Assembly: GCA_963847445.1 (NCBI GenBank)
Contig: CAWJZV010000034.1
Location: 96,001-160,000 of the forward strand
Source: an uncultured delta proteobacterium
GTDB taxonomy: Bacteria; Desulfobacterota; Binatia; UBA9968
Reading direction: 5' to 3'
Length of the DNA stretch: 64,000 bases
The notes below the pieces were generated by a model. That model had not been told where the DNA came from and made no database searches. It saw nothing but the letters and a program-made list of their open reading frames with translations. Below, in pieces: positions 31,144 through 63,344 of the stretch. A program made the position numbers and the translations under genes. The stretch's first letter is position 1. Each line of letters opens with the position of its first letter.

Positions 31144-32010
31144 ATGTCGATGAACTGGGGAATGGCGAATCGTTTGGCGCGAATTATCAAATCGGACGGC
31201 CGGGCGGTGATGCTCGCCGTCGACCACGGCTACTTTCTCGGACCGACGAGCGGTTTGGAAGAGCCGCGCAAAACCATCGAACCGTTGATGCCGCATGCCG
31301 ACTCGATCATGCTGACGCGCGGCGTGTTGCGTACCTCGGTGGACGCCAAAGCCGACAAGCCGATCGTGCTTCGCGTCTCGGGCGGCACGAGCATTCTGAA
31401 AGAATTGTCCAACGAAGATATTACCGTGTCGATCGAAGAGTGCATTCGGCTCAATGTCTCGGCGATCGCGTTGTCGATTTTCGTCGGCTCGGAGTTCGAG
31501 AAAGAGACTTTGGTCAGCTTGGCCAAGCTGGTCGACGAAGGCGAGAAGTACGGCATCCCCGTGCTCGCCGTTACCGCAGTGGGCAAGGACATGGCGCGCG
31601 ACGTGCGCTATCTCGGCCTGTCCTGCCGCATCGCCGCCGAGATGGGCGCGCACATCGTCAAAACCTACCACTGCGACAACTTCGAAGAGCTGATCGGCAG
31701 CTGCCCGATCCCGGTCATCGTCGCCGGCGGCAAGAAGACGCCGGAGATGGAAGCCTTAGAGCTAACTTACAACGCCGTCAAAGGCGGCGCGGTCGGCGTC
31801 GACATGGGCCGCAATATCTTCCAGTCCGATTCGCCCGTCGGAATGATCAAAGCCGTGCGCGCGATTGTCCATGAGAATGTTTCGGTCAAAGAGGCGTTCA
31901 AGATTTATGAGAGTGAGAAGACAGTAAGGCGCGAAAGGCTGCGTAAGAGCGAGCTGACGTCAGAGGAAGGGGACTGTCGCGACCATCTCCTACGTTCGCG
32001 AACACGATGA
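31144..32010 (+). CDS. lsrF: LsrF-like class I aldolase/thiolase
   Basis: WGMANRLARI, MLAVDHGYFLGPTSGLE, AAEMGAHIVKTY, AGGKK, DMGRNIFQ. Confidence 0.88.
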   Translation: MSMNWGMANRLARIIKSDGRAVMLAVDHGYFLGPTSGLEEPRKTIEPLMPHADSIMLTRGVLRTSVDAKADKPIVLRVSGGTSILKELSNEDITVSIEECIRLNVSAIALSIFVGSEFEKETLVSLAKLVDEGEKYGIPVLAVTAVGKDMARDVRYLGLSCRIAAEMGAHIVKTYHCDNFEELIGSCPIPVIVAGGKKTPEMEALELTYNAVKGGAVGVDMGRNIFQSDSPVGMIKAVRAIVHENVSVKEAFKIYESEKTVRRERLRKSELTSEEGDCRDHLLRSRTR

Positions 32011-33042
32011 ATGATGCGCGTCGCGATGTACTACAACAACCGGGACGTTCGTCTCGAAGAACTGCCGGTTCCGAAGATTGGTCCCGGCGAATTGCTGTTG
32101 CGTACGCGAGCGAGCGGGGTTTGCGGCAGCGACTTGATGGAGTGGTATCGCATCAAGAAGGCACCGCTGGTCCTGGGCCATGAGATTACCGCCGAAGTCG
32201 TAAAACTGGGCGCGGGCGTCGATACGTTTAAGGTCGGCGATCGGGTTTTCTCCACTCACCATGTGCCGTGCGGCACAGTGCCGCTATTGCTTGGCCGGGC
32301 ATCAATCGGTTTGCGACCTGTTGCGCACGACGCATTTCGAGCCTGGCGGCTTTGCCGAGTACATTCGCGTGCCGAAGATTAACGTCGAGTTGGGGACGTT
32401 GCGCATTCCCGATTCGATGACCTTCGATGAAGGCTCGTTTATCGAGCCGTTGGCGTGCGTCGTGCGGGCGCAGCGATTCGCCAAGCTCGCGCGCTGGGCA
32501 GACGGTTTTGGTGATCGGCAGCGGTATTTCCGGCTTGCTGCACGTTCAGCTCGCCAAGGCGCGCGGCGCGGCTCGCGTTATCGCCACCGATATCAGCGAC
32601 TATCGATTGAATGCGGCCAAACAGTTCGGCGCCGATGCGACGATTCACGGCGCGGAAGACGTGCCGGCGCGGCTAAAAGAATTCAACGACGGCCGCCTGG
32701 CCGACCTGGTGATCGTTTGCACCGGCGCCATGCCGGCGATTCAGCAGGCGACGAAATCGATCGATCGCGGCGGGACGTTGCTTTTCTTTGCGCCCACCGC
32801 GGCGGGCGTCGATGTGCCAATTCCGCTGTTCGATTTCTGGCGCGATGAAATCACCGTGGTCACCTCGTACGCCGGCAGCGGCGACGATTTGAAAGAATCG
32901 CTTGGAACTAATCAGTGATCGCAAGGTGCGGGTTGCCGACATGGTGACGCACCGATTGCCGCTGGCGGAGACGGGTGTGGGTTTTCAATTGACGGCGAGC
33001 GGGCAGGATTCGATCAAGGTGATTATCGATCCGTTGCTTTGA
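32011..33042 (+). CDS. Zn-dependent alcohol/polyol dehydrogenase (MDR); frameshifted
   Basis: GVCGSD, GHE, HHVPC..C.YC..GH.SVC, GSGISGL, THRLPL. Confidence 0.88.
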
Positions 33043-33071: not shown

Positions 33072-34058
33072 TTATTTCCCGATTCCCAATTCTTTTCTCG
33101 CCTTGTCCAAGAAACTGTAGTCGACGACATCAGCGACGGTCACCGGCTTGGTGACCTTGGCGCTGTCGCGGGCGAGGTCGATGAGGACTTGGACCGATTC
33201 CGGTTTGACGTAGGCGTCTTTGGTCAGCACGCGACCGACTTGGCGCGACATTTCGGCGGCCATCTTGCGGTCATTCACTTTCCATTGTTTCATCAAGATG
33301 TTGGTCACGGCTTCCTGGTTGTTCTTATCCCAGACGAATTGCAGGCCGCGCAGGGTGGCGCGTACCATGCGGTAGACTTCGTCAGGGTTTTCGCGGATGC
33401 GTTTGTCCGAAGTGCCGAAGCCGTTCTGGGGAAATTCGATGACGTCGCCGAGAAAAAGCAGTTCGTTATAACCCTTTTCCTGGGCGATGATGTTTTCCGG
33501 CACGGAAATCAGCGATGCTTCGACGACGCCGGATTCCAATACGGCGAGCCGGCTCGCGGCGTTGCCGGACATTTGCAGGACCGAAACGTCCTTGCCGGGC
33601 TCCAGGCCGATTTGTTTGAGCGCTTGATTGGCGAGTAGCGTCGCCGAGCCGCCGGGCGAACTGCCGGCGATTTTTTTGCCTTTGAGCTGCTTCAAGTCTT
33701 TGATGTTTTTCTGGCCGATCAAAAATAGCAGCGGTTTCGACACGGTGAAGAGCAAGACTTTCATCGGCCGGCCTTGGACTGCGGCGCCGATGGTGCCGGT
33801 GACGGCGCCGTTGAAGTCGACGTCGCCGTTCAACACCGCCGTGCTGGCCAAGTTGGCCGGCATGAAAATGATCTCCAGGTCGATGCCTTCGTCTTTGAAA
33901 AAGCCGCGATGGAGCGCCGTGTAGAGCGCGAGGAATGAGACATTGGTCGACGAGCTGGCCATGCGGACTTTTTTGAGGGTCTGGGCGTCATGGACGGCAC
34001 GAGTAGCCAGCACTGCGGCAGAAAGACGAGAATGCCAATGATCAACGCTTTTTTTCAT
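33072..34058 (-). CDS. ABC-type substrate-binding protein, NitT/TauT/SsuA family
   Basis: GFFKDEGIDLEI, DLKQLKGKKIAGSSPGG, DVVDYSFL; signal peptide region frameshifted. Confidence 0.88.
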   Translation of the reverse strand: MKKSVDHWHSRLSAAVLATRAVHDAQTLKKVRMASSSTNVSFLALYTALHRGFFKDEGIDLEIIFMPANLASTAVLNGDVDFNGAVTGTIGAAVQGRPMKVLLFTVSKPLLFLIGQKNIKDLKQLKGKKIAGSSPGGSATLLANQALKQIGLEPGKDVSVLQMSGNAASRLAVLESGVVEASLISVPENIIAQEKGYNELLFLGDVIEFPQNGFGTSDKRIRENPDEVYRMVRATLRGLQFVWDKNNQEAVTNILMKQWKVNDRKMAAEMSRQVGRVLTKDAYVKPESVQVLIDLARDSAKVTKPVTVADVVDYSFLDKARKELGIGK

Positions 34059-34094
34059 GATTTCTGTCTCCATCGGTCTAGGCGTCAAATTAAC

Positions 34095-34123
34095 CTGGAT
34101 TCCCGCGTTCGCGGGAATGACGG
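34095..34123. repeat. dRS3/REP-like palindrome
   Basis: ctggATTCCCGCG-tt-CGCGGGAATgacgg. Confidence 0.8.
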
Positions 34124-34158
34124 ATAAAGCGCGAGTTCCTCAGTGTTGGATCGATTTC

Positions 34159-36067
34159 TCAATCGAGCTGGCTCCACTCTTTGAATTCTTCGAGCCCCAA
34201 CTTTTGCAGCGTGTCCATGTATGGCCGGCCGGTGTGTTCGTGGCGGCCGGAGATTTTGTAATATTCGTAAACCAACTCAGGCAGCCACTTGGCGATGGTG
34301 AAGCCTTTGTACTTGCCGTCGGGGATCGGTTCCAAAAAGCGCGGACCGACGTCTTGCCAGTCATGTTCGGCGATCCAGCCGCGCTGGGTGCCGAAGACGC
34401 TTTGTAAAATAATCGCGCGGTGGCCGGCGTCGACGAGTTCGTCCAAATTCACGTCCCAACCGGTGGTCGCGTTGAGCGCATCGAGCATGCTCTGCACGCC
34501 GTCAGGCGGTTTGTCGTTTAACGCGAACCAGCAGCCGCCCATGATGCCGCAGGCCTGGCGGACCTTCTCGGTAATTAAATGCGAACTGGTCCAACCGTCC
34601 GGTTGATTGGGATCGAGCGGGCCCCATTTTTCCCGGTATTTCAAATCGGCGGGCGGTTCGGTGCCGCCGGCGCCCTGGGGCTTCATGCCGCCGCTGGCGA
34701 CCAGTTCGCGGAGCATTTGGCTCAAGCATCGGCCGCCACTCATGCTGGGCCGGCGTGCCGCCTTTGGTGTGCACCACCCAGTTCTTGGCTTCGCCGCCCA
34801 GCTCTTCCGCCAGCTCTTTGGGACCGTCGGCGAGAATGTTGCCGAGCCAGGTTTCGCGCCGGGCGCAGCGTTCGAGCAACGTCTCGACCGCGTCCATGTC
34901 GCCCCATTCCAACTTCAAGCCGTCGGTCTTGTCGGGGCCGAGCACGCCTTTCTCCCAGGCTTCGAAGGCGAGCCCGGCGCCGCAGGCGAAGTGGCTGCAC
35001 TCGATGCCGAGATCGTTGATGCGTTCGGAGAGATAGAGCACGTCGTTGCCTTTGAAGCCAAGGTTGTAAAACGTGTCCATCCACTCGCTGCCGGCGTTGA
35101 AGTGGCCGATCTTGCCTTTGAAGCGGCCTTCGCCGATCTCGACATCCCATGGGCACATGCGCGGGCATTGAAAGCAGGGACGCAGCGTGACGCGATTCTG
35201 ATCGAGCCCCTTGGCTTCGTCGGTGATGATCGTGCTGCGCCAGTTCAACTTCGTAATCGCGCCCCAGTCCTCGCCATGGCCGACGCTGGTGAGCCGTTTC
35301 TTCACGGTGGTCTTGCGCGACGCGATCGCTTTGGACCAGCGCACGCCGGCGTCGATTAATCTGTTTTTGTCATGCAAGCGCGGCCGCTTGGTGCCCCAGG
35401 CGACCAAGGCTTTGAGTTTCTTCGAGCCCATCACCGCGCCCAGACCGTGCGCCGCGGTGTGATTGTAGTCGTTGACCAGCATGGCGGCGCGCACCAGGTT
35501 TTCACCGGCGGGACCGATGGCGCCGACGCGCGCGTCTTGATGGCCGGATTCTCTGCGCAGGGTGTCTTCAGTTTCGCGAATGCCCTTTCCCCAAACCCCG
35601 CTCGCGTCGCGCAGCTCGACTTTGTCCTCGCCGATGTAAAGATACTTGGGTGTCTGCGCCGCGCCGGTGACGATGATGCCGTCGTAGCCGGCGCATTTTA
35701 ACGACGTGCCGAAATAGCCGCTGGTGGCGCCGCGGCCGAGGGTGTACTTGGTCGCCGGACTCAAATAGACGAAACACATCTTGGTGCCGCCGGGAGTGAA
35801 CCCAGTGCCGGTGATCGGGCCGGTCATGCCGACGATGACATTGCGGGCATCGTAGGGATCGATGCCGAGGGGCAGTTCGTTGAGCAAGACATACTCGGCA
35901 AAGAGTTGGCCGCCCCAATATTTTCTTAGCAGCGGTTCTTCGGGAAGATTGATGTCGGTGAGTTTTCCCGCCGTCATGTCGACGCGCAGGATCTTTCCCA
36001 TGTAGCCGCCGGGCAAACGGGTTTTGCGTACGCTCGGAAAGAAGTTGACGTATTCGGGGTTTGCCAT
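34159..36067 (-). CDS. Aldehyde:ferredoxin oxidoreductase-family protein, divergent paralog A; frameshift near 34725
   Basis: GYMGKILRVDM, LKCAGYDGII, IGPAGENLV, GAVMGSKKLKA, CFQCPRMC, GGCWF, TLQKLGL. Confidence 0.88.
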
Positions 36068-36092
36068 CGTGTGCCTCGATTAAGTTAAGACT

Positions 36093-36217
36093 CGTTCCAA
36101 TAGTTCCAATCGTTCCAGATGTTCCAAATGTTTCGGATGCTGTCGCTCCGCTATTCCGTAGTCCTTAAACGACTGGAACTTTTGGAACGGCATGGAACGC
36201 GAACGCGCAGCGTTCGC
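36093..36217. repeat. 9-bp-period inverted repeat element, (GTTCCAAnn)n...(nnTTGGAAC)n
   Basis: cgttccaatagttccaatcgttccagatgttccaaat ... ctggaacttttggaacggcatggaac. Confidence 0.8.
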
Positions 36218-37273
36218 TAATCCGCCGCTGCCCATAACACTCGATCCGCCGGCAGGTCTATATCTAATCTCTCCCAGCTGTCGCCCTGGTCGCGGCTGAT
36301 CATTAGATCGCCGGCGCCGCCGGCACCTGACGCGTGGCCGCGGGCGACATTGCCGAAGCCGGCGAAGACCGATTTGTGATCGGTCGGATGATGCACCAGC
36401 GCCCAGACCATGGAGTCGAGTTCTTCGGCGAGGCCGTTGGTAACGCGGCTCCAGGATTGCGCGCCATCGGTGCTTTTGAAGATCGCCGCTCTGGCACCGC
36501 GATTTTCTCGACGCCAGAAGCCCGGAGAGGCGTCGGCGGCGCCGATCAGCATGGTCGCTGGCTCACCGTTGCCCTGCGGATTCGAGAAATAGAAAATCGT
36601 GGAAATAGTCGCGGGTCATGCCGTTTTCCGCGCGAGTCCAACCGACTTCCGGTTTGTCGCTGGTGAAGAAGCCGCGCGCGCTGGCGACATAGTAGCGGTC
36701 GGCACGTTTGGGAAAGTTGGCGATCACATGGATGTCGAGATAGTCGATGCCTTTGCTGACATCTTCCCAGGTGGCGCCGCGGTCGAAGCTGCGCACGATG
36801 CCGCCATGCTCGAGGCATAAGTAAATTGTTTGCGGATCGTCCGGATGAATATGAATGTTGCGCACATGGCCATGGTGCGGCGCTTGCGGATACCACCAGT
36901 TCTTGCGCACCGACTGCGGCAGCTTTTTCAACGCGGTGATTTCTTGCCAACTGTTGCCGCCGTCTTCGCTGCGAAACAGACCCACCGGCTCGATGCCGGT
37001 GTAGACGACTTTGTCGTCGCTGGCATCGACGGTGACCGAGCGGATATCGCCTTCGAATACCTTCGCCCAGCTCTTGCCGCCATTGGTCGTGCGATAGAGA
37101 CCGTCATGGGTGACGCCGACGAACACGGTCTCCGGCGACTGCTTGCAGCCGTGAATCGAATCGATGATGCCGTCTTCGAAGTGACGCGCGACTTCCTGCC
37201 AGCCGGAGTCCGTAGACTTCCAGGCGATCAAGCCATGTTGGGTGCCTGCGTATAATCGTACGCCTTCGCTCAT
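36217..37273 (-). CDS. BNR/Asp-box beta-propeller protein; frameshift near 36570
   Basis: Repeated S/TxDxGxSW boxes (TTNGGKSW, SEDGGNSW, SFDRGATW, STDGAQSW, SRDQGDSW); no signal peptide. Confidence 0.82.
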
Positions 37274-37287
37274 ATTAAACCTCCTGG

Positions 37288-37441
37288 GGTTCCAATGGTT
37301 CAATCACTTCGTTCCGTTCAACCGCTACGCTCCGTTCAACCCCCACCTGTGTCCTCCCCCGCGAACGCGGGGGAAGGATTCGGAAGTGTACCGAGTGCAA
37401 CGAGTGGAACCGACTGCGAACAGCTTGGAACGATTGGAACG
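37288..37441. repeat. Composite repeat with GTTCCA/GTTCAA arms, a central GC palindrome and TTGGAAC arms
   Basis: gttccaatggttcaatc...cgttcaacc; tcctCCCCCGCG-aa-CGCGGGGGaagga (37352-37378); ttggaacgattggaac. Confidence 0.75.
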
Positions 37442-37453
37442 CTCTTTCCGTTC

Positions 37454-38183
37454 CTACGGAAACAGTTCTATTCTCCCCGTGCCGCCTTGATTGATCCCAC
37501 TGCGATTCGATGCGCGAGAAAAATTCCCAAGCCCGGTTGGCGCGGCGCTCGAAGTCGATCTCGGCATTGAAAGTTTTGCATTCATCGGCGCTAAAATGCT
37601 CCACCGGGCCGAGCGCTGCGGCTTGCATGGTTTTCTTGGCGTCGTCTTCCAAGATCAACGACGCGAACAAGACTTCCGCCAAACTCTTGCCGGCGACGAC
37701 GATGCCGTGGCCGCGCATGAGCAGGGCGCGGTGGTCGCCGATGGTTTTCAGCATGGCGTCGCCGCGTTGCGGCGTGGTGACCAGATGGGCTTCCTTGTAG
37801 AGCGGCACGCCTTCGCCGAAGACCGTGCCTTGCAGCGTCACCGGGTGAAACTCGCGCTTGGCGATGGCGAACAGTGTCGCGTAGGGCGTGTGCAGGTGAG
37901 CGACGGCGAGAGCATCCGAGCGCGCCCCGTGCAGCGCCGTGTGAATCGGCCACTCCACCGGCGGCGGAATCGTGCCGGTGGTCGGCTTGCCGCTCAGATC
38001 GATGGGGATCATGTCCGATGCCGTGAAGTTCGCCTTGTCCGAGCCCGAACCGGGAGTGACGAAGATCGTCTTAGTTTCCGGCTGAAACACGCTGACATGG
38101 CCGAACAGGCCGATGAGCCCCTGCATGGCGAAGATTCTCGTGCACGTTGCGAGCTGCTCGCGTAGTTGCTGTTCCGATGCCAT
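37454..38183 (-). CDS. Class II aldolase/adducin-family metalloenzyme (decarboxylase-like)
   Basis: FGHVS, EWPIHTALH, AHLHTP, LMRGHG; likely true end GGTGRIELFP* (TAG 37454) after a frameshift. Confidence 0.88.
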
Positions 38184-39182
38184 CTACTTGGTTCTCCTTT
38201 GTGCGGCTTCCAGTTCCTCTTTGACTTCCTTGACCAGCTGTAAGTGCAGCAGCCGTTCCGGCGCAATATCTTCTTTGAAGCCGAGGGGGATCTTAATATC
38301 GTATTCGAGAAAGTTCTTGATCCCTTCGGCCGACGGCATGCCTGGCACGCCTTGGGGCAGGGCGCGCACGTAGTTCTTCGTGCCTTCGACGATCATCGCT
38401 TTCGAGGCTCTGCCCAGTTGAAGTTTCTTCATGGCCAAATCGACGGCCTCTTCGGGCCGGTCGCGCACGAACATCAACGCACGTATCGCCGCGCGCAGCC
38501 AGCGTTTCACCTGCGCGGGATTGTCGCGCAGCTTGCGATCGGTGGTGACGAAGCCTTGGAAGGGCATGGGAAACAAGTCGCCGAGAAAACCCAACGACAC
38601 GAGGCCTTCTTTTTGCGCGAAGACCAGGCCGCCGGGATCGACGATGGCGGCGTGCGCCGCGCCGGTTTTGATCGCGGTGATCCGAGTATTGGTGTCCGAG
38701 CCCATGGAGATGCGAATCATCTCGCGCGACGCCACGCCGCCGCGCTCGGCGAACATGGTCATCATGCGATCCTGGGTGTCGCCGGGGCTGCCGACGGCGA
38801 TTCTTTTGCCCTTCAAATCGGCAGCGGTCCTGATGCTCGGGTCCGCGACCAGGTAGAAGGTGACCTTCTCGGTCTGAAAATAGATGCCCTTCACCGGCGC
38901 GCCTTTCAGTGCGGCGCGCATGCCGCTGCCGCCACCGCCGCTAAAATCGACGTCGCCGCTAAGCAATGCGGCGGTGGCGAGGGGACCGGAGATGACCACG
39001 GTTTCGTTCTCCAAGCCTTCGTCTTTGAAAAAGCCGCGGGCGTCGGCGACGTGGATGGAGAGGTAGTTTAGATTCGCCTGAGGAATTGCGGTGCGAATTT
39101 TTTCGGCGTGGGCGATGATTGGCGGACGAAAGCGTGATTGCCGCGACGAAAATTGCCAGAGACGGAACAACCCAGGTTCCAC
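38184..39182 (-). CDS. ABC-type substrate-binding protein, NitT/TauT family
   Basis: GFFKDEGLENE, AALLSGDVDF, DLKGKRIAVGSPG; start uncertain. Confidence 0.85.
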   Translation of the reverse strand: MEPGLFRLWQFSSRQSRFRPPIIAHAEKIRTAIPQANLNYLSIHVADARGFFKDEGLENETVVISGPLATAALLSGDVDFSGGGGSGMRAALKGAPVKGIYFQTEKVTFYLVADPSIRTAADLKGKRIAVGSPGDTQDRMMTMFAERGGVASREMIRISMGSDTNTRITAIKTGAAHAAIVDPGGLVFAQKEGLVSLGFLGDLFPMPFQGFVTTDRKLRDNPAQVKRWLRAAIRALMFVRDRPEEAVDLAMKKLQLGRASKAMIVEGTKNYVRALPQGVPGMPSAEGIKNFLEYDIKIPLGFKEDIAPERLLHLQLVKEVKEELEAAQRRTK

Positions 39183-39194
39183 TCGGAGCTGGGT

Positions 39195-39218
39195 CTGGAT
39201 TCCCGCCTACGCGGGAAC
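39195..39218. repeat. dRS3/REP-like palindrome, second copy
   Basis: ctggaTTCCCGC-ctac-GCGGGAAc. Confidence 0.75.
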
Positions 39219-39272
39219 GCCGAACCAAGGAGTCGGTCGCTTTGAGGTGCCATTGCGCAGCTGAATTCGACG

Positions 39273-40080
39273 TTAAGAGAAATACCGATAGAGCAGCCGC
39301 TTCGGGTGAGTGATCGCGAGCCACAGAGCACGCATCTTGCCGGCGATGCCGCAGCGCGGCGTGAACAGGTCCTTCAACATCAAGCCGAGCGGGATTTTAT
39401 GCTTGGGAAATCTGCCGGCGGCGATGTCGCGCACGCCGTATTTGTCTTTGCCTTCCTTCAAGACATAGACGACGCTGCCGCCACCGGCTTCTTTGTCGCC
39501 GTAGGTGTAGCCGCCCACCGCTTCGGCCTGCTTCTTGGCTTTGTCGGCGATCTCTTCGGTGAAGCCGAAGTCGAAAGCGTTCACCGGACAGGCCTGAACG
39601 CAGAAGGGCTGCTTGTCCTCGCTGATGCGGTCGCTGCACATGGTGCACTTGCTCGCCTTGCCGGTGATCTCGTTCTTGGTGATGACTTCCCAGGGACAGG
39701 CGTGGATGCAGTATTCGCAGCCGATGCAGACATCCTTGTTGATGACCACCGGGCCTTCTTCGTACTTGGTAATCGCCTCGACCGGGACAAACCGCGGCGC
39801 AGGCGGCGAAATCGCAGTGCATGCAGCTGTTTCGCGCCCAGATCGGCGACAACCCCTCGAGCACCGGCGGTTCCATGGTGATCCAGTTGGTGCTGGAGAG
39901 TTCGTAGGCGCTGGTGCGGTCGTGGTCGTTCCAATCCTTGCACGCCTGCACGCAGTGACGGCAGCCGATGCATTTGGTCGCGTCGAATAAAATGCTGCGC
40001 GGCTTGCCATCGAGCAGCCGGCCAGTGGGCACCAGGTTGCCGTATTCTTGAGTCAGAGTGTCCGTCGGTTTGTTCGCCAT
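39273..40080 (-). CDS. 4x[4Fe-4S] electron-transfer subunit (DmsB/FdnH-like); frameshift near 39790
   Basis: CIGCRHCVQAC, CMHC...ACAAVCP, CIGCEYCIHACP, KCTMC...PFCVQACP; no Tat signal. Confidence 0.9.
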
Positions 40081-40144
40081 GCGGGTCCTTTCGCGCTTAC
40101 TTTCAGCGTGGGTGTATCACTTAACCTTTTGGCGCCGTCAACAG

Positions 40145-40198
40145 AATGGCAGTGAGCAATGGATAATTGATAATGGAGAATGGAAAATGGAAGATTGA
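40145..40198. repeat. About 7-bp-period (AATGGA) tract
   Basis: aatggataattgataatggagaatggaaaatggaagattg. Confidence 0.65.
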
Positions 40199-40283
40199 CC
40201 TGCCGATTGGACGCTTGTGTTTTGCTAGCTGTCCCGACTAGCATGCCGTTAACTATTGCTTCGGATCGGGAAGGGGATGTCAC

Positions 40284-40967
40284 ATGGCTTCTGGAACATG
40301 GCGAGGGATTGTCGGTGTGGTGAAACCGACTTATGGCTCGGGATCGTTGGTGGAATTTATTCGACTCCTGCCGGAAGGGGTTGGCTGCATTCCAATGTAC
40401 GCCGGCATCAAGGAACATTCGGAACGCGGCTATCTCGGCGCCATGGAAAATTATCATGCAAAGGTCGCGGAGCTGGCGGAGATCGGCGTCGATCTTATGC
40501 ATCCCGAGGGCGGGCCGCCGTTCATGGTGCGCGGCCATAAGGCGGAGCAGGAGATCGTCAGCGCCTGGGAGGCCAAGTATAAAGTGCCGATCTTCACGTC
40601 AGGGATGTCGCAGGCCCAGGCGCTGCGCGCTTTAGGGATCAAGAAGTTTGTCGGCTGCACTTATTTCCGTGATCAGAAGATGAACGATGTCTTCACGCGC
40701 TACTTCACCGACTGCGGCTTCGAAGTGTTGGGCATGGAAGGCATGGACACCTCGCCCAGCGAAGCGGATGGAATTTCCAACGAGACGATTTACCAGCATC
40801 TCAAAGCGTCGTTCAACAAACATCCGACGGCGCAGGGAATTTATCTGCTCGGCTCCGGCGCCTGGGGGATGAAGGACATCATCGCCGCGGAGAACGATCT
40901 CGGCGTGCCGGTGGTTCATCCGGTCGCCGCGCGGGTTTGGTATGTGCAGAAGTTGTTGAAGAATTAA
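40284..40967 (+). CDS. Asp/Glu racemase superfamily protein (maleate isomerase / arylmalonate decarboxylase-like)
   Basis: WRGIVGVVKPT, LPEGVG, ALRALGIKK, YFTDCGFEV, ENDLGVPVV. Confidence 0.75.
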   Translation: MASGTWRGIVGVVKPTYGSGSLVEFIRLLPEGVGCIPMYAGIKEHSERGYLGAMENYHAKVAELAEIGVDLMHPEGGPPFMVRGHKAEQEIVSAWEAKYKVPIFTSGMSQAQALRALGIKKFVGCTYFRDQKMNDVFTRYFTDCGFEVLGMEGMDTSPSEADGISNETIYQHLKASFNKHPTAQGIYLLGSGAWGMKDIIAAENDLGVPVVHPVAARVWYVQKLLKN

Positions 40968-41035
40968 CAATCCGTTGAAGGGCGCGAGCCGGTTGTTGGA
41001 GGAGTTGCCATCAGTCGCTGGCTAGCGATATGCGC

Positions 41036-42949
41036 TCAGTCGAGTTGGCTCCACTCTTGGAATTCTTGGAGGCCCAGTTTCTCCAGCGTGTCTTTGAACG
41101 GTCTGCCGGTGCGCTCGTGCCGGCCGGATTGTTTGTAGTAGTCCCAGATCATGTCCGGCAGCCACTTGGCGATGGTGAAGCCTTTGTATTTGCCGTCGGG
41201 GATCGGTTCTAAAAATCTTGGGCCGACGTCTTGCCAGTCGAAGTCGGCGATCCAGCCGCGCTGGGTGCCGAACAGGCTTTGCAGGATCATGCTGCGGTGG
41301 CCGGCTTGTAGCGCTTCGTCCATGGAAAAATTCCAGCCGGTGATGGCGTTGAAGGCGTCGACGATGGAATTCAAGCCGTCTTTTTTGTGGCTCTCCTGGG
41401 CGAACCAGCAGCCGCCGAAGATGCCGGTGAATTGCCGGTACTGTTCGGAAAGCACATGGGACCAGACCCAGCCTTCCGGGTTGTCCATTTCCAGCGGACC
41501 CCAATGTTCGTTGTCGCGCAGATCCGGCGGCGGATTCTTCGAACCGCCGCCTTGCGGCTTCATGCCGCCGCTGGCGACCAGCTCTCGTAACATTTGACCG
41601 AGCAGCGGGCGCCATTCGTGCATCGCCGGCGTGCCGCCTTTGGTGTGGACCGCCCAGTTGGGCGCGTCGCCGCCGAGGGCTTCGGCCAATTGCTTCGGTC
41701 CTTCGGCGAGCAGATTGCCGAGCCAGCCTTCGCGGCGCGCCGCCATGTCGAGCAATTTACTGACGGCCTCGACGTTGCCCCATTCGAGTTTCACGCCGTT
41801 GGTGCGGTCCGGACCGAGCAGGCCTTTCTCCCACGCTTCGAACGCTACTCCGGCGCCGCAGGAAAAGTGGCTGCACTCGATGCCGAGATTATTGATCTTC
41901 TCGGCGAGATAGAGCACGGCATTGCCTTTGATGCCGAGATTGAAAAAGGTATCGAGCCACTCGCCGCCGGCGTTGAAGTGAACCACCGTGCCTTTGAATT
42001 CGCCCTCGCCCAACTTGGCGTCCCAGGGACACATGCGGGCGCACTGAAAGCAGGGACGGAGCACGACGTCATTGTCGGCGAAGCCGGCGATATGCGCCGG
42101 TTGAATGTCGGTGCTGCGCCAGTTCAAATTATTCAGCGCGCCCCAGGCGTCGCCGTGGCCGTACTTGGTTTTCTTTTTCTTGACGTCGTGTTGCTGCAAG
42201 ACGTTGCGCCAGCGCAGGCCGGCGTCGGCGAGCTTGGCTTTGTCGCGATGGCTCGGCCGCAGCGAGCCGCTGACGACGATGGCTTTGAGTTTTTTCGAAC
42301 CGAGCACGGCGCCGCCGCTATGGGCGGCGAAATGGTTGTAGTCGTTGGCGAGCATGGCGCCGCGGTTCAGGTTCTCACCGGCGGGGCCGATGCACAGCAC
42401 TCTGGCGTCGCGGTTGCCGACGATCTCGCGCAGGCGGTCTTCGGTGTCGCGGGTGCCGAGGCCCCAGACTTTCGCGCCGTCGCGCAATTCCGCCTGGCCG
42501 TCTTTGACGTAAAGATAAACCGGTTGCGCTGACACGCCTTCGACGATCACGCCATCGTAGCCGGCGGCTTTGAGATAGGTCGCCCAATAGCCGCTGGTGG
42601 CGCCGCGGCCGAGCGTCTTGTTGGTTAACGGACTCAAGTAGACCGCGGTCATCTTCGTGCCGCCCGGCGTGAAGCCGTTGCCGGTGAGCGGGCCGGTCAT
42701 CATGACCACTTTGTTTTCCGGGCCGAAGGGCGTGGCGTCGAGCGGCAATTCGTTCATCAAAATATACAGCGCCAGCGCCTGGCCGCCGATGAATTTTTTC
42801 AAGATCGGCTCTTCGGGCAGATTCTCGTCCGTCAGTTTGCCGGTGGTCAGATTGACGCGGAGAATCTTGCCCATATAGCCGCCGGGGAGGGGAGTGGTGC
42901 GCTGTGCCGGAAATAGATTCATCTTCGTATTGCCTTCTGTGATCATCAC
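41036..42949 (-). CDS. Aldehyde:ferredoxin oxidoreductase-family protein, divergent paralog B; intact
   Basis: GYMGKILRVNL, LKAAGYDG, IGPAGEN, GAVLGSKKLKA, CFQCARMC, GGCWF, TLEKLGL. Confidence 0.9.
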   Translation of the reverse strand: MMITEGNTKMNLFPAQRTTPLPGGYMGKILRVNLTTGKLTDENLPEEPILKKFIGGQALALYILMNELPLDATPFGPENKVVMMTGPLTGNGFTPGGTKMTAVYLSPLTNKTLGRGATSGYWATYLKAAGYDGVIVEGVSAQPVYLYVKDGQAELRDGAKVWGLGTRDTEDRLREIVGNRDARVLCIGPAGENLNRGAMLANDYNHFAAHSGGAVLGSKKLKAIVVSGSLRPSHRDKAKLADAGLRWRNVLQQHDVKKKKTKYGHGDAWGALNNLNWRSTDIQPAHIAGFADNDVVLRPCFQCARMCPWDAKLGEGEFKGTVVHFNAGGEWLDTFFNLGIKGNAVLYLAEKINNLGIECSHFSCGAGVAFEAWEKGLLGPDRTNGVKLEWGNVEAVSKLLDMAARREGWLGNLLAEGPKQLAEALGGDAPNWAVHTKGGTPAMHEWRPLLGQMLRELVASGGMKPQGGGSKNPPPDLRDNEHWGPLEMDNPEGWVWSHVLSEQYRQFTGIFGGCWFAQESHKKDGLNSIVDAFNAITGWNFSMDEALQAGHRSMILQSLFGTQRGWIADFDWQDVGPRFLEPIPDGKYKGFTIAKWLPDMIWDYYKQSGRHERTGRPFKDTLEKLGLQEFQEWSQLD

Positions 42950-43062: not shown

Positions 43063-44058
43063 CTATCTCGCGCCGAAGATCCCACGCATCTCTTCGCCGG
43101 CTGGACCATATTCCTTCGCCTGGCGCGGATCGCTGGCTTGCAGTTTCACGTTGCGCAGGGAAAACACTTGGGGATCGACGTCGCGATGGGCGGGAATTCG
43201 TCCCTGATCGCGCAACATGCGCTGGCCTTCGATGGAGAGAATAAAACCGATCAGCAGTTTGCCGGCATTGGGGTGGGGCGCGCCCTTGGCCAAGACCATC
43301 GGATGGACATAGGTAATTACCGGCTCGTCGAAAACATATTGCACCGGGCCGCCTTGGCCTTTGATGCGCGCGGCGATGTGGGCGTAGGTGTTGGTGACGA
43401 CGTGATATTCGCCGGCAGCCAGAAGTTGCGCTGTGATGTTGTGACCGTCGCGCACTGCCGGTTGTTGGGCGGCGAGCGCCTTCAAAAAATTGCGCGCCTT
43501 ATCCTTGCCCCAGCGCCGTTGCAGGCTGACGTACCACTCCGGGTCCTGCAGATTGACGCCGATGCGTCCCTTCCAACGGGGCGCCAACAGGTCTTCATAT
43601 TTCTTTGGCGCTTCATTGGGTTTCACCAGCTGGGTGTTGTAGGCCATGGAGTTGAGCAGCGAGTGGACGTTGACCCAATGGCCGTCGGGATCTTTGAACC
43701 CTTCGTCATAGGCCGCGGCTTCCGGCGGCACGAAGCGCTGGGTGAGCCCCGACTCTTTCATGAGCTGCACTTGAAACCCCGCCGAAGTTATGACGTCGAC
43801 GGCGAAGCGGCCGGCTTTCGCTTCGGTGTTGGCCCGTTGCAGGACGCGCTCGCTGGTGCCGCGGTAGAAGGACGGTTTGATCGCCGGATATTTTTTCTTG
43901 AAAGCATCGACCAGGGTGACGATCTGCTCGTTATTGAGCGAGCTGTAGAGCACGACTTCGCCTTCGGCGCGCGCGCCGTCATCGAGTGTGGCGGCGTGGG
44001 CTCGCGAGAAAATAGGACGGATACGACAAATACGGACAAATAGCGATCGCAGCATCAT
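43063..44058 (-). CDS. Extracellular solute-binding protein (Fe3+/thiamine/polyamine-like family)
   Basis: GARAEGEVVLYSS, MAYNTQLV...PKKYEDLL.PRWKG, APHPNAGKL. Confidence 0.85.
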   Translation of the reverse strand: MMLRSLFVRICRIRPIFSRAHAATLDDGARAEGEVVLYSSLNNEQIVTLVDAFKKKYPAIKPSFYRGTSERVLQRANTEAKAGRFAVDVITSAGFQVQLMKESGLTQRFVPPEAAAYDEGFKDPDGHWVNVHSLLNSMAYNTQLVKPNEAPKKYEDLLAPRWKGRIGVNLQDPEWYVSLQRRWGKDKARNFLKALAAQQPAVRDGHNITAQLLAAGEYHVVTNTYAHIAARIKGQGGPVQYVFDEPVITYVHPMVLAKGAPHPNAGKLLIGFILSIEGQRMLRDQGRIPAHRDVDPQVFSLRNVKLQASDPRQAKEYGPAGEEMRGIFGAR

Positions 44059-44073: not shown

Positions 44074-45054
44074 TCACACATGGCCGATGAAAAGATCGTC
44101 CATCGGCAGCATGGTTTTCATCAAGCCCTGCTCGATCTGGTAGCGGTTCATGGCCGCGAGGGTGCGCTTTTCGTTCTCGCCCATGACGTAGTCGTAGGGA
44201 TCTTCGCCGAGCACGTCGCGTTCTCTTTGATATCCGGCGATTTCTTCCGCCGGCATGTACTGGGTCGAGACATCGCGCGCTTCCATGAAGGCGCGGGTCA
44301 GCTTCGCCGGAAGATCGGGGTGGCGCGCGACGACTTCCTTGCGGATCGACAGCACATGCATGATCGGGTTGATGCCGGTCTTTTTGACGTAGTCGATGAA
44401 TCTCTTGATTGTTATCGAACAGCGGTTTCACGCCAGCGTAGGCGGCCATCATCGGCGGGGTCTCGCCGCCGCCGAAGAATCCGGCATAACCATTGTCGCC
44501 CGGCACAACTGCGCCGTGCAGTTCGCCTTCATTTAACATTTTCGACAGCACCAGCTTCTCGCCGCCGAAGGGCGGCGGCGGATCGATGCGCTGGACTTTG
44601 ACCGGCAGCTCATGGCCGATGAACACTTCGCGGCCGGAGACGAACCACTGCATGTCGGTGGTCTTGATGCCATGGGCGTCGAGTAGATAGCCGCGCGCCC
44701 AGACCACCGCGGTGGCGCCGTAACGGAAGCAGCCGAATTTTTTGCCCTTGAGTTCCGACGGATGCTTCAGATGTTGCTCGCAGTGATAAATATTGCGCTG
44801 GCGCGGGCCGCGCTCGAAGAATACCGGTATCGCCAGCAGCTCTTGACCCTTTTCGATGGCGCGCATCAAGCTCGCCGCCGAGACTTCGCCGACATCCCAT
44901 TCGCCGTGGAGATATTTGTAATGGCGCTCGCCGGATGAGACGAAGTTGGGATCGACGTCGAGCTCGTAGCCTTCGATGCCGACTTTGCCGTCGATGATCG
45001 CCTGGCAGCGTGGGTGGTCGGGGAGGCCTAGGGTAATTTTGGTTTGTTGGCCAT
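44074..45054 (-). CDS. 4,5-dihydroxyphthalate decarboxylase-like protein (SBP fold); frameshifted
   Basis: AIIDGKVGIEG, EWDVGEVSAAS, AIPVF, ATAVVWARGYL, GINPIMHVLSIR, LGEDPYDY.M..N, QIEQGL. Confidence 0.72.
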
Positions 45055-46245: not shown

Positions 46246-47238
46246 TTTCGCCCCGCAATGCCGAGTTCTTTGTGAACTTCCCGCAGCAAGGAAAAGTCGA
46301 CGAGCTGCGCCAATGGCGGGCTAGCCGGCAGCTTCAACGGCTGGGTGATGGTTAGATCAATATTCTTGCGCATGGCGTCGTCGGTGGCGCCGCCGGGGTT
46401 CTGGGCGTCGATGGCTTTGATGCAAACATTCGCCGCGCCCTCGATGACGTCGCGCGCGATGGGCGAAATCGGCCTGGGCAAACTTATAGGTTTCTTCTTT
46501 GCGCGTGAGCATCAATTGCAGGCTCTTGACCATGGCGCGGGTCCAGCGTTTGAGTTTATCGCGCCGATTCGCCAGAAGCGCGTCAGAGGTCGAGTAACCC
46601 GCCCAGGGCCAGGGCGCCCATGTCGGCCAGCACGCCGAGTTCGGTGAAGCCCTGCTTCTTCATGATGTACGCCGCGTCGGGATTGAAGGCGCGCGCCTGG
46701 ATGATGCCATTGCGCATGGCGACGATGGAAGTCTCGGCGCCGCCGATGGTCATGAACGTCACGTCTTTTTTCGGGTCCATGCCGTGATGCTGCAAGACCA
46801 TCGAGGCGGCGACTTCGGTGGTGGCGCCGGGGCCGGTGGTGCCGATGACTTTGCCTTTTAGATCTTGCACGCGCTTGATGTTGGGCGCGCCCATCAAGAC
46901 GAACAGCGATTTGTCATAGGGGAAAAAGTTCGCCTTCAAGGGCGCGCCGCGCGCCGCCGCGCGCATGGACGAACCGGCGATGCCGGCGACATCGATCTCG
47001 CCGGCTAGAAGTGCGGTGACGACGACGTTGCTATTGACCACGATCCACTGGATTTCCAAATTCTCCTGGGCGAACAGACCGGCGCGTATGCCGACGAACA
47101 ACGGCAGGTAGCCGAAATCTTTGGTCGACAAAGCGACGCGGAACTGCTCGGCGTGGCTGTTGCTTGCGAGCCGACGAGAAGCGTTGCGAGCCACGCGATA
47201 ATGACAATGTTATGAGATAGCGGTGACTGTTGTTTCAT
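46242..47238 (-). CDS. ABC-type substrate-binding protein, NitT/TauT family; frameshifted
   Basis: Signal peptide, GLFAQENLEI, ALLAGEIDV, DLKGKVIGTTGPG, LVDFSLLREV. Confidence 0.82.
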
Positions 47239-47351: not shown

Positions 47352-48302
47352 TTAATCAATGTATCCCTTCTCGCGGAAGTATTTTTTCGCTCCCGGATGG
47401 AGCGGGATGTTTAATTGTCCAGCTTCGCCGCCGCGGCAAAACTCGCGAATGGTCATGGGCCGTTTGTCGAAATGATCGACGGGGATATGTTTGTGGCAAA
47501 GGTCGACGGCTCTGGCCATGTGGTAGGCGACCTTGTCCGACAAATCGGCGTGGCAAAAAAATGTCCAGCCGCTGAAATCGACGCAGCGAATCGGCTTGTC
47601 CAACTTGGGATAATGCTTGCGCGTCAGCATGGCGCTGGGAAAGCCGAGCTTGGCCATATGTTTGACCGCGTTGTCGTTGATCGGCAAAAAGCGCATGCCG
47701 GCTTTGAGCGCCGTCGGTCCCCAGCTCTTCACGCCTTCGTCAAAGACTGCGTCAGCGTTGCCGGATAGAATCGCGTCGCGCCGCTCCGGTCCGCTCGGGT
47801 TGGGCGCTTCCATGATCTTGCCGCCCCATTTCTCAATGTCTTTGTAACTCATGCCGTAGGCTTTGAGCACTTCTTCGATGGCATAGATTGTCGTGGCCAG
47901 CTTGCCGCGCCGGCGCGTCGAGATGCGCAGGGGATATTTCTGCTTCTTGATGTCTTCGAGCGACTGGATGCCGGTGTCCGTGCGCACGGCGAAGATCAAG
48001 CGGTCCCAGGTCGGAAAGACGCCGATGGCGCGCAGCGGGATTTTCTTCTTGTAAAAACCGCAGCCGAGATAAGCCATCGCCGACAGGCCCACCGGATTGC
48101 CGAAGCCGAAAGAGTATTTCTTCTTGCCGACCAGGATCGCCGGCCCGGTGCCGCCCAACTCGGAGTCGCGCCAGCCCATGGCGATGTCGAGTTGCGATTG
48201 GCGCGGCAGCTCGATGCTATTGAAAAATGTATAGCCGACGACGTTGGCGATATCGACGCGCTTGGAGGTTGCGGCGATGGAGAGTTTAATCGGTTTGTCC
48301 AT
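47352..48302 (-). CDS. TAXI-family TRAP solute-receptor-like protein without signal peptide
   Basis: DTGIQSLEDI, GNADAVFD, IPLHPGAKKYFREKG. Confidence 0.8.
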   Translation of the reverse strand: MDKPIKLSIAATSKRVDIANVVGYTFFNSIELPRQSQLDIAMGWRDSELGGTGPAILVGKKKYSFGFGNPVGLSAMAYLGCGFYKKKIPLRAIGVFPTWDRLIFAVRTDTGIQSLEDIKKQKYPLRISTRRRGKLATTIYAIEEVLKAYGMSYKDIEKWGGKIMEAPNPSGPERRDAILSGNADAVFDEGVKSWGPTALKAGMRFLPINDNAVKHMAKLGFPSAMLTRKHYPKLDKPIRCVDFSGWTFFCHADLSDKVAYHMARAVDLCHKHIPVDHFDKRPMTIREFCRGGEAGQLNIPLHPGAKKYFREKGYID

Positions 48303-48338
48303 TGTTTTTTGTTCTCTTGAGGGTTGTTGCTTGAACGG

Positions 48339-48408
48339 GTCGAGGATGGACGATCGAGGATGGATGATGGCACTATTCGATCCTCTATCCTCCATCATCG
48401 ATCTCGCG
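48339..48408. repeat. 7-bp-period inverted element, GAGGATC/GATCCTC type
   Basis: tcgaggatggacgatcgaggatggatgatgg ... tcgatcctctatcctccatcatcgatc. Confidence 0.75.
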
Positions 48409-48410
48409 AT

Positions 48411-48851
48411 TTAAACCGCCTGCCGTGTGCGCCGGCCGCCGGGGCGGGCAAAGTGCAGTTCGAGATAGTTGCCTTCGGAGTCGAACATGTAGATCGTGTT
48501 GCCGCTGTCACGTTCGACGCTGCGGTGGAATTTGCCGAGCTCCTTGGCTTGTTTCATCGCTGCGTCATAGTCTTCCCAGGCCAAACTGAAGGCTTGGTGG
48601 GTAATGCCATCTTGGTCGACGGCGTCGCGGTTGAGCGGTCGCGGTCGGGCAAACAGCACGACGTCATATTCGCCGCAGCGCAGACGGTCGAGTTTTTGCG
48701 CCACGCCATGAACGGGAAATGAATCCGGGTTGCTCGGATTGCCGCCGACCCGGCCGAGATAGTCCATGCCCAATACGTTGGTGTAAAACTCTTTGGCGCG
48801 ATCCAAATCGTCGACCGGGATGCCCATGTGGTAAACCTTGGTGAGTTTCAT
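48411..48851 (-). CDS. VOC/glyoxalase-family protein
   Basis: YHMGIPVDDLDRAKEFYTNVLGM, HQAF, YMFDSEGNYLEL. Confidence 0.88.
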   Translation of the reverse strand: MKLTKVYHMGIPVDDLDRAKEFYTNVLGMDYLGRVGGNPSNPDSFPVHGVAQKLDRLRCGEYDVVLFARPRPLNRDAVDQDGITHQAFSLAWEDYDAAMKQAKELGKFHRSVERDSGNTIYMFDSEGNYLELHFARPGGRRTRQAV

Positions 48852-49413
48852 TACGTTTGTCCTTATCAAGGTCGCTGGCTCAAAACGTGCGCCGTGATCG
48901 GCGGGCGGACATGCCAATCTGCGATTTATATAACAAACCGAGGAATCTGCAAACTGCGATTGTTCAGCTCGGCTCAGTGCAGACTACCCGCTCTGCGGGT
49001 CTAAGTGATGGTCGTCGAGTCGAATTTTGAGAAATTTGGCTAGTTAAGAAAAAAGGGCAGGTGTTAATATCACGTCGGTCTAAAGAGAAAGTCCGTAAAT
49101 CAAAGGTTGACCCGGTTCCCAGCCGGTATTCACGATCGATTTTTGCGCGGGTCATCGCTCAACTCGGATGGCCTCCGATCAAATGATGATAATGGTTGAT
49201 CGAGTTCGAGCACTTGCCGAAGCAAACAATGTGATCATTCCACTGGTGGTTGTTGCAGGATGGTATTAAACCCTCATAACTTTTCCATTGTCATTAGAAG
49301 ACAATTGTAATCGGGATTCCGCCGCAGCATGGATATAGATTCAGCAGTATCGTCAGTTGCATGGATGAAGCGGTGCGCTGATGGCTCGTCTCGCTGCGCG
49401 GCTCACCGTCGCT

Positions 49414-53910: not shown

Positions 53911-54007
53911 GGATCGCTCCATCATTAACCGCAGAGTCGACAAATTGCAGATTCGAGGATCGCTATCTTCTATCGTGCAATCTCGATCTTCGAATGCGCC
54001 ATAGCGC

Positions 54008-57000: not shown

Positions 57001-57303
57001 GGATTGACGTGGAGTTGGAAGATCGCCGCGCCCTTTGGGACAGAGCGTGCCCTCGTTGTGCGGACTGCGCGGATCGCCTTCGATGTTGACGATCTGCCCA
57101 TTGACCGTATGAACCAGCGTGCCGCAGCCGACGGAGCAATAGGGGCAGACGCTCGGGGTGACCTTGGCGTCTTTGATTCTGAGTTCCTGCGCGCGCGCGA
57201 CCGCCGGCCCTAGGTTAACTCCCGAACCGATCAGACCGCTGAGCGCCGTGCCGGTGCCCGCAGCGACTGAAAGCCGGAGAAAATCTCGTCGTGAAACTTC
57301 CAT
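54008..57303 (-). CDS. fdnG: Formate dehydrogenase alpha subunit (FdnG-type), Tat-exported selenoprotein; several frameshifts
   Basis: SRRDFL Tat motif; CPYCSVGC...LCPKG; ENQARI-U-HSS (TGA 56726-56728); GSNMAENHP, RGHASIQG, TTYRLTEH, VGMPWHWG. Confidence 0.92.
56697..56725 (-). promoter_or_regulatory. Bacterial SECIS element
   Basis: TGA-CACAGCTCTAGC-GTCCCC-GGTCT-GGGGAC; hairpin starts 12 nt after the UGA. Confidence 0.85.
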
Positions 57304-59312: not shown

Positions 59313-59313
59313 G

Positions 59314-60189: not shown

Positions 60190-60203
60190 CTCCTCAATCT
60201 AGC

Positions 60204-63341: not shown

Positions 63342-63344
63342 GAC

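Follow-up and report, generated by a model that had tools for sequence, protein, structure and literature searches.

Two paralogous large subunits of an uncharacterised AOR/WOR clade with a remodelled active-site second shell in an uncultured Binatia bacterium

Enzymes of the aldehyde:ferredoxin oxidoreductase (AOR) family bind their pterin cofactor through DxxGL(D/C) motifs. The wider AOR/WOR family holds many clades that have not been characterised (PMC12096430), and Class II WOR, in which a large subunit (WorL) is paired with a small subunit carrying four [4Fe-4S] clusters (WorS), is found in 40 of 92 clades according to PMC13328260. Both papers describe a conserved second shell in the aldehyde-oxidising members, formed by Thr243, Glu313, Tyr427 and His448 of the Pyrococcus furiosus enzyme (PfAOR), and PMC12096430 further names an 'otherwise conserved Arg', the counterpart of the Arg of the AGRGG motif. 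YdhV and BamB are described there as being without the usual second-shell residues and as using a Cys ligand to the metal, and E. coli YdhV is reported as a Mo-bis-pterin enzyme (PMC12096430). On the side of metal insertion, an archaeal-type MoeA1-PBP/MoeA2 tandem is present in some bacteria, where it co-occurs with TupA and for which tungsten specificity has been proposed (PMC11291035). In this paper we analyse two paralogous genes of the family, copy A (34159-36067, minus strand) and copy B (41036-42949, minus strand, 637 amino acids, intact), in a stretch of 64,000 nucleotides (the window) from contig CAWJZV010000034.1 of an uncultured Binatia bacterium. The host metagenome-assembled genome (MAG) has 7.19 Mb in 48 contigs, with a completeness of 91.8% and a contamination of 6.9%. 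Our results make it reasonably likely that A and B are WorL-type catalytic subunits of an uncharacterised AOR/WOR clade, probably pterin-dependent, with a substrate that is probably not a simple aldehyde.

Both copies contain the Pfam domains AFOR_N and AFOR_C, in B with scores of 209.7 bits (cut-off 29.8) and 163.2 bits (cut-off 27). Sequence identity is 65-68% between the two copies and 29% between B and the canonical AOR of the window (61482-63341, minus strand; AFOR_C 398 bits), which we used as comparator. Four Fe-S cysteines, in CFQCxRMC and GGCWF, are present in A and B; in B they are Cys300, Cys303, Cys307 and Cys514 and align with the [4Fe-4S] ligands 288, 291, 295 and 494 of PfAOR. 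Structure prediction, proposed as a check in the initial annotation, gave an AlphaFold2 (AF2) model of B with a predicted local distance difference test (pLDDT) score of 88.5 and a predicted template modelling (pTM) score of 0.91, its least confident loops being residues 91-100, 201-210 and 461-466. The model superposes on the solved family members 1aor, 9g7j, 9mqx, 1b25, 6x1o, 8c0z and 4z3w with TM values of 0.79-0.84. These domains and TM values, together with the conservation of the cysteines described below, bear out the initial annotation's claim that both copies keep the AOR scaffold and its cluster. Its reading of two AOR-family genes holds in that both are present, but copy A is not one open frame here, a split which had gone unnoticed.

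The substitutions listed in that annotation are likewise seen in both copies: AAHS/AAHG, EW(L/M)DT, N(N/D)LGIEC, SGGMKPQ and GI(F/M)GGCWF stand where the comparator has the canonical AGRGG, EYET, DQFGID, RGACH and DSLxxC. The canonical AOR also retains the Thr, Glu, Tyr and His of the second shell. In the clade of A and B the first pterin-type motif reads N-x-x-G-I-E and the second G-x-x-G-G-C, and YdhV deviates similarly.

How far the clade extends was judged with a word-indexed search, which returned 3598 relatives, the best 120 clusters (at 90% identity) being 66-93% identical to B. When B is counted together with these 120 (n = 121), Lys99, Cys300, Cys303, Cys307, Cys514, Glu358, Cys359 and His444 are kept in 121/121, as are Met463, Lys464, Pro465, Gly509, Gly512, Trp515 and Phe516, while His210, Glu330, Trp331, Asp333, Asn353 and Gln466 are kept in 120/121. 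The ratio of nonsynonymous to synonymous substitution rates (dN/dS) is 0.07-0.13 for B and 0.03-0.15 over both parts of A. The changed motifs are therefore conserved, as the initial annotation had held, and are not a sign of decay. After clustering at 50% identity, an exhaustive search of the representatives finds the clade as a single one (P0102), and the next full-length representatives are 44%, 42% and 41% identical, then at most 38%.

We built a FastTree tree of 96 rows, comprising B, A (with X at its break), a third paralogue from contig C21 of the same assembly, the canonical AOR, E. coli YdhV as the named reference, 16 of the 120 clade members and the 75 best-ranked full-length representatives of 560-720 amino acids; fragments and lower-ranked representatives are omitted from it. 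PfAOR, FOR, WOR4, WOR5, GAPOR, BamB and AorB were compared by PDB and NCBIfam scores instead. The variant clade is monophyletic with 100% local support and a stem of 0.58, and divides into A-type, B-type and C21-type subclades. Its sister is P0121, with which it lies inside a group of 47 non-canonical rows, the other 48 rows having canonical motifs. None of P0121, P0129, P0140 and P0155 is near a solved structure (best matches 264-341 bits). For copy B the best structure match is PfAOR (E 1.1e-64 with the single sequence, 1e-79 with the clade profile), the match of BamB to the single sequence is confined to the N-terminal domain, and the scores with the YdhV model NF007354 (182.5 bits, cut-off 868) and the GAPOR equivalog NF040818 (25.6 bits, cut-off 1300) stay far below their thresholds. 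A separate clade, as initially proposed, is thus supported by the tree and by the PDB and NCBIfam scores, which place it outside every characterised or solved group; neither a characterised clade that already has these motifs nor homologues that fail to conserve them came to light. From these comparisons we take the clade to be an uncharacterised branch of the AOR/WOR family, without a solved or named member, though it may already be numbered within the published clade sets (92 clades in PMC13328260; Schut et al. 2021). To call it an undescribed system would be an overstatement, as a large subunit with a 4x[4Fe-4S] protein is the published Class II WOR arrangement and many uncharacterised clades are known. 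Our literature search gave no relevant match for Binatia-type names combined with AOR, or for dihydroxyphthalate decarboxylase combined with tungsten.

The taxonomic distribution in our samples is patchy. Matches to B occur in 24/24 sampled genomes of the window's genus (a tally that includes G305), often in three copies, in 4/5 genomes of one sister family and in 0/11 of another. An even sample of the phylum gave 0/300 other genomes with a match at E 1e-150, which shows patchiness in this sample and not absence. Related loci carry record titles such as Chloroflexota, Verrucomicrobiia, Udaeobacter and others, which are unchecked bin labels. The clade is abundant in public assemblies from soil, sediment and groundwater, with at least 120 clusters (90% identity) that are at least 66% identical to B. 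The C21 paralogue (G000:C21:20020-23019) is 67% identical to B and has a 9jp7-like gene, a 60%-identical copy of the one in the window, directly upstream; beside it we found no A/B partner, Fe-S, aldolase-family or BNR gene. The genomic context of the sister clade was also considered as a functional lead and rejected: P0121 relatives (77-82% identity) occur in 2/53 loci, both from Chloroflexi-labelled MAGs, and share 0 of the variant clade's neighbours.

Residues were mapped with a profile alignment to 1aor and an L-INS-i alignment of 21 rows that included YdhV. In the second shell, Thr243 of PfAOR corresponds to His265 of B, Tyr427 to His444, His448 to Lys464 or Pro465, and the AGRGG Arg (Arg186) to His210. 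The segment Glu311-Tyr-Glu313 corresponds to Glu330-Trp-Leu-Asp333; Glu313 itself falls opposite Gly328, Glu330 or Asp333 in three alignments, so that an acid is kept at or adjoining the site. Elsewhere in the pocket, Arg76 is replaced by Lys99, Arg182 by His206, Asp338 by Asn353, Asp343 by Glu358, Thr344 by Cys359, Lys450 by Gln466 or Gly467 and Asp489 by Gly509, and Cys494 is retained as Cys514. Not all of these changes are remarkable. Lys for Arg76 is found in the window's own canonical AOR too, and Asn for Asp338 is frequent among canonical sequences. The initial annotation had assigned cofactor or active-site roles to the changed positions, and this holds in part: the second-shell positions are truly changed, but the replacements of Asp338 and Arg76 are ordinary and others are common to YdhV. 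What sets the clade apart on the alignments is a second shell rebuilt with His, His, a Lys loop and His, together with Asp489 to Gly, and not a wholesale loss of cofactor motifs. Of the four residues that make up this shell in aldehyde-oxidising AORs three are replaced, so that the different chemistry put forward at the outset seems plausible.

The comparison with described enzymes helps to place these changes. PfAOR (1aor), the best sequence match of the clade, has the same three-domain fold (TM 0.84), and its four cluster cysteines and the Gly in its first pterin motif recur in the clade. It is only 29% identical and differs in the four second-shell positions that are His, His, a Lys-containing loop and His in the clade, and in Asp489. 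A further difference is that the review lists PfAOR as an L subunit only, whereas the clade has a WorS-like partner gene. In the WOR5/ASOR of P. furiosus (6x1o, 6x6u), a large subunit is combined with a 4x[4Fe-4S] small subunit as in Class II WOR, and the enzyme resembles the clade in that the conserved Thr is missing, His replaces Tyr and the 'otherwise conserved Arg' is replaced (PMC12096430). Genes for SsuA-like, sulfonate-type binding proteins adjoin the window genes, a further likeness whose matches are below cut-off. WOR5/ASOR is 27% identical, however, and of its second shell (Tyr199, Glu328, His446 and His469) the clade has the His446 equivalent, His444, but differs at two other positions: ASOR keeps His469, the equivalent of His448, and has Tyr199 for the Arg, while the clade has the Lys loop and His210. 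With YdhV the clade shares His at Arg182, a one-residue deletion after the AGRGG site, a residue other than Asp at Asp489 (Asn in YdhV), and the lack of the AGRGG Arg and of Asp343. The metal-ligand Cys336 of YdhV aligns with Trp331 of B, so the Cys-ligand feature of YdhV and BamB is not found in the clade, and Geobacter BamB differs further in matching the single sequence of B in the N-terminal domain only.

Between A and B lies a gene for a WorS-like 4x[4Fe-4S] subunit (39273-40080, minus strand; Fer4 families), which is split near 39782 in the window. The intact orthologue at locus L001 is 268 amino acids long, shows four Cys motifs, with 16 Cys that are invariant, and lacks a twin-arginine (Tat) signal, so the initial description of a Tat-less 4x[4Fe-4S] protein stands. 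The small-subunit feature of Class II WOR, a neighbouring gene with four [4Fe-4S] motifs, is thereby present. Our synteny counts cover 75 loci and genes within 3 kb of an AOR-like gene, a 3 kb flank on both sides being available in 28 loci only; by this count the Fe-S gene accompanies the AOR-like gene in 37/75 loci. A complex model of B with the Fe-S protein scored 0.84 (runs 0.80, 0.84 and 0.88), compared with 0.18 for the best control, with contacts agreeing in at least 94% and a partner pLDDT of at least 85. In the calibration of this score the mark was reached by 58/80 solved complexes and by 2/110 mismatched pairs. In the modelled interface, B residues 296-310, which hold the Fe-S Cys motif, would face residues 38-59 and 162-166 of the Fe-S protein.

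The cofactor can be approached through the insertion genes. Just upstream of the conserved gene string, many relatives have two genes, one for MoeA and one for a fusion of MoeA with PBP_like (PRK14498, 760 bits; cut-off 534), and this pair is present in 23/75 loci. We scanned the genomes of 41 relatives for AFOR_C at E 1e-30 or better, where variant sequences score at most 171 bits and canonical ones more than 340 bits. Several of them, including G325 (closed), G327, G329, G307 and G324, have only variant-clade matches and no canonical type. A variant gene and the MoeA/MoeA-PBP tandem are separated by about 1.1 kb in G325, G327 and G329 and by about 7 kb in G307, and G324 has one MoeA on the same contig; G325 and G329 also have a TupA-like gene, 41-42% identical to that of the window, at 4 kb and 9 kb from the tandem, respectively. 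Because these variant-only genomes keep the variant genes beside the MoeA/MoeA-PBP pair and a TupA-like gene, the use of a pterin-metal cofactor by the clade is likely, and tungsten is a plausible metal, as far as genomic linkage can tell. The pair resembles the published tandem in being adjacent genes with one member fused to PBP_like, but PMC11291035 draws no link to this AOR clade, and 'aldehyde ferredoxin' appears 0 times in that text.

The frame breaks in the cluster need explanation. Copy A is read in frame 34502-36067, which is real to about residue 448, and then in 34159-34743, which is real from residue 7 ('SQMLREL'); the Fe-S gene is divided between 39397-40080 and 39273-40010, with the break between CAAVCP and VEAITKY. 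We compared positions 34100-40200 with Logan contigs from four public runs of four studies, which represent relatives and not the source sample (the best shares 0.33 of the sampled words). One window base in copy A, at 34723 (34726 in one contig), and one in the BNR gene, at 36583, are missing from the contigs of 4/4 runs, and one in the Fe-S gene, at 39782/39787, is missing from the 3/3 runs that cover it. In relatives such as L001, L006, L009, L019, L025 and L041, A and the Fe-S gene both have orthologues with one uninterrupted frame, and the same is true of genomes of the same genus. In the same assembly a class I aminoacyl-tRNA synthetase gene on contig C18 is split into open frames of 740, 243 and 402 amino acids, a second one on C7 has five stops within the match, and several molybdopterin oxidoreductases are fragmented. 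On the window's own contig the alcohol dehydrogenase (ADH) gene falls into 4 tblastn pieces, the MoeA-PBP gene into at least 4 and the 9jp7-like gene into 2, and the Tat-signal Mo enzyme (54665-57303) is spread over three open reading frames (ORFs). Further broken window genes extend over about 36 kb, which gives roughly one indel per 3 kb, and this density points to a noisy long-read assembly. B or A orthologues in the long-read MAG loci L038, L040, L054, L007 and L039 have frame breaks of their own at other positions, a scatter that fits sequencing error and not shared mutations. Against five orthologues, dN/dS of copy A is 0.05-0.14 upstream of its break and 0.03-0.15 downstream.

Given the extra bases missing from the four runs, the essential genes split in the same assembly and the purifying selection on both sides of A's break, we consider it very probable that the breaks in A, the Fe-S gene and the BNR gene are assembly indel errors. 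It is improbable, by comparison, that the three are recent pseudogenes in a decaying cluster where only B still works. Such decay would fit three 1-bp insertions within 6.1 kb that are all missing from the contigs of the four other runs, none of which is the source sample. It is opposed by the splitting of a synthetase gene, several Mo enzymes and three further genes of the contig, by the low dN/dS downstream of A's break and by the single open frame of A in relatives. Another question is whether A and B combine into an obligate heteromer with the single Fe-S subunit in common, a heteromer having been suggested initially. In 19/75 loci an A-type and a B-type gene are found on the same strand, separated by 4-8 kb and with one Fe-S gene in between, and both are under purifying selection. 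However, in at least nine loci (L042, L043, L045, L051-L053, L055, L057 and L070) only one AOR-like gene is present, accompanied by an Fe-S gene of its own, the C21 paralogue stands without a partner paralogue or Fe-S gene, and A and B differ next to the active-site motifs, as would be expected of isoenzymes with different substrates. The heteromer is therefore not favoured, and we regard it as doubtful.

In the arrangement that we prefer, with A and B as WorL-type subunits, each large subunit would most likely contain one [4Fe-4S] cluster together with tungsten (or molybdenum) in a bis-pyranopterin cofactor, and the archaeal-type MoeA/MoeA-PBP pair would probably load this metal-pterin. Electrons would pass from each to the cytoplasmic WorS-like protein in the manner of Class II WOR. 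The pocket would be remodelled by His in place of Thr243, Tyr427 and the AGRGG Arg and by a Met-Lys-Pro-Gln loop in place of His448, with the invariant Glu330-Trp-x-Asp333 at the Glu311-Glu313 site. With such a pocket the substrate would probably be no simple aldehyde; it may be handled together with three decarboxylase-like enzymes and taken up through adjacent anion-type binding proteins. Of this picture, the analysis itself establishes the fold, the Fe-S cysteines, the identity of the clade, its conservation and synteny and the linkage to the genes for cofactor insertion; cofactor occupancy, the metal, the partner complex and the substrate class are predictions.

Could A and B instead be ordinary broad-spectrum aldehyde:ferredoxin oxidoreductases, in which the substitutions are neutral? 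An acid is retained at the Glu313 site, the best PDB match is PfAOR, and Tyr427 to His is found also in one characterised AOR and in WOR5/ASOR (PMC12096430). We think this unlikely, though it is the strongest of the alternatives, as Thr243, His448 and the AGRGG Arg are all replaced by clade-invariant residues, the replaced residues are described as conserved in aldehyde-oxidising members in PMC13328260 and PMC12096430, and the genome also retains a canonical AOR. Alternatively, the pyranopterin might have been lost or exchanged in the clade, and the AOR scaffold would then work with nothing but Fe-S or with some other cofactor; a different cofactor was a possibility raised by the initial annotation. 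Gly at Asp489, Gln or Gly at Lys450 and His at Arg182 and at the AGRGG Arg would fit this, as would the low AF2 confidence in the loops 91-100, 201-210 and 461-466, but low pLDDT in cofactor loops is expected of an apo model. In YdhV, Arg182 is likewise His, the AGRGG Arg and Asp343 are both missing and Asn stands at Asp489, yet the enzyme is reported with Mo-bis-pterin, and 5/5 variant-only genomes, which have no canonical AOR, link the variant genes to MoeA and MoeA-PBP genes. A different or lost cofactor is not supported by these observations, and we judge it very unlikely.

Several points nevertheless weigh against pterin-dependent WorL-type subunits with an unusual substrate. The changes Asp489 to Gly, Lys450 to Gln or Gly and Asp343 to Glu lie at positions which we take to be pterin contacts in PfAOR, and the 1995 PfAOR structure paper reportedly gives the DxxGL(D/C) motifs and those positions as such; pterin binding could be weakened or altered by these changes. 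The alignments in the Glu313 and His448 regions are uncertain by 1-3 residues. The complex score may reflect likeness to the solved WorL-WorS-type complexes 6x1o, 8c0z and 4z3w. In the window's own lineage the MoeA pair adjoins the canonical AOR, about 20 kb from B, and MoeA and TupA might act for other Mo/W enzymes encoded in the same genomes. Finally, the decarboxylase-like and binding-protein assignments rest on matches below family cut-offs.

The conserved gene string occupies 33-48 kb of the window on the minus strand. At its head is a TAXI/NMT1_3-type solute-binding protein (47352-48398), followed by a broken or truncated SsuA-type (NMT1) binding protein (46583-47194), fragments of an SBP_bac_6 protein, the 4,5-dihydroxyphthalate-decarboxylase-like (9jp7-like) gene (44077-45040, in two frames here) and, directly upstream of copy B, a second SBP_bac_6 solute-binding protein that is weakly PhnS-like (43063-44058). 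Between B and the Fe-S gene stands a divergent gene of the arylmalonate decarboxylase (AMDase)/maleate-isomerase family (40284-40967, plus strand; Pfam Amdase, E 4.9e-14). Downstream of the Fe-S gene come an SsuA/NMT1-type solute-binding protein (38184-39182; Pfam NMT1), a class II aldolase/adducin-family protein (37275-38183; Pfam Aldolase_II, E 6.8e-35) and the BNR/Ycf48-like propeller protein (36217-37303, split at 36583), all on the minus strand. Copy A, which is split near 34723, follows, and then another minus-strand SsuA/NMT1-type solute-binding protein (33072-34088; Pfam NMT1, E 4.8e-25).

Within 3 kb of an AOR-like gene, the class II aldolase-family gene is found in 32/75 loci, the 9jp7-like gene in 31/75, BNR in 25/75, the AMDase-family gene in 24/75 and SBP_bac_6 in 23/75. 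An intact 9jp7-like orthologue (P0274) has no match in Pfam or NCBIfam; its full length aligns with PDB 9jp7, a solved 4,5-dihydroxyphthalate decarboxylase (E 8.3e-29). For the class II aldolase-family protein, 3,4-dihydroxyphthalate decarboxylase is among the best NCBIfam matches (88 bits; cut-off 200). None of the binding proteins, which belong to SsuA, TAXI and PhnS types, reaches its family cut-off: the L001 orthologue of 38184-39182 has a signal-peptide-like N-terminus and scores 66 bits with SsuA_fam (cut-off 163), and that of 33072-34088 scores 78 bits, also below the cut-off. From the three decarboxylase-like enzymes conserved alongside the clade and the anion-type binding proteins encoded nearby, we suggest, with low confidence, an anionic, carboxylated and possibly aromatic compound as the substrate.

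At the end of the gene string, an LsrF-like aldolase, a Zn-dependent ADH and a cupin are found in 14-16/75 loci. In the window these positions hold an LsrF-like DeoC-family aldolase (31144-32010, plus strand) and the broken Zn-ADH (32014-33039, plus strand). The L001 orthologue of the aldolase (L001:21058-21861) passes the LsrF model, which describes a 3-hydroxy-5-phosphonooxypentane-2,4-dione thiolase, with 412 bits against a cut-off of 297. Beyond the head of the string, a small VOC/glyoxalase-family gene (48411-48917) adjoins a gene for PobA, 4-hydroxybenzoate 3-monooxygenase (49414-50598, minus strand; 623 bits, above the equivalog cut-off of 539). A separate Mo/W enzyme locus (53110-57303) lies between the variant cluster and the Tup genes, with a 4x[4Fe-4S] protein (53110-53943) beside the Tat-exported molybdopterin oxidoreductase (54665-57303) on the minus strand. 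Next to the canonical AOR are genes for a TupCBA-like oxyanion ATP-binding cassette transporter and an HTH_17/PBP_like regulator (57526-61151, minus strand), the TupA-like protein scoring 220 bits with the TupA model, below its cut-off of 400, and a ThiS/MoaD-like ORF (63345-63962). Together they form a tungsten-type island (57526-63962) that continues just past the window end, where MoeA and a frameshifted MoeA-PBP fusion (G000:C34:160680-163895) start 680 bases beyond the last window position.

It is tempting, though rather speculative and to our minds less likely than not by a wide measure, to see in the clade a tungsten-pterin enzyme of largely aerobic soil bacteria that leaves simple aldehydes alone and, with a pocket lined by His, His and Lys, acts on carboxylated aromatics alongside three non-oxidative decarboxylase-like enzymes. 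It might then reduce an aromatic carboxylate, reduce the ring of a free di- or polycarboxylic acid in a BamB-like way, or cleave a C-X bond in the manner of ASOR. If true, soil carbon turnover would include a new route that depends on tungsten. The clade is in any case a well-defined target for new pterin-metal chemistry: it keeps the scaffold while most of the catalytic second shell is changed, and it is tied to an insertion pair that the literature proposes as tungsten-specific. It thus lets one ask whether aerobic soil bacteria use tungsten.

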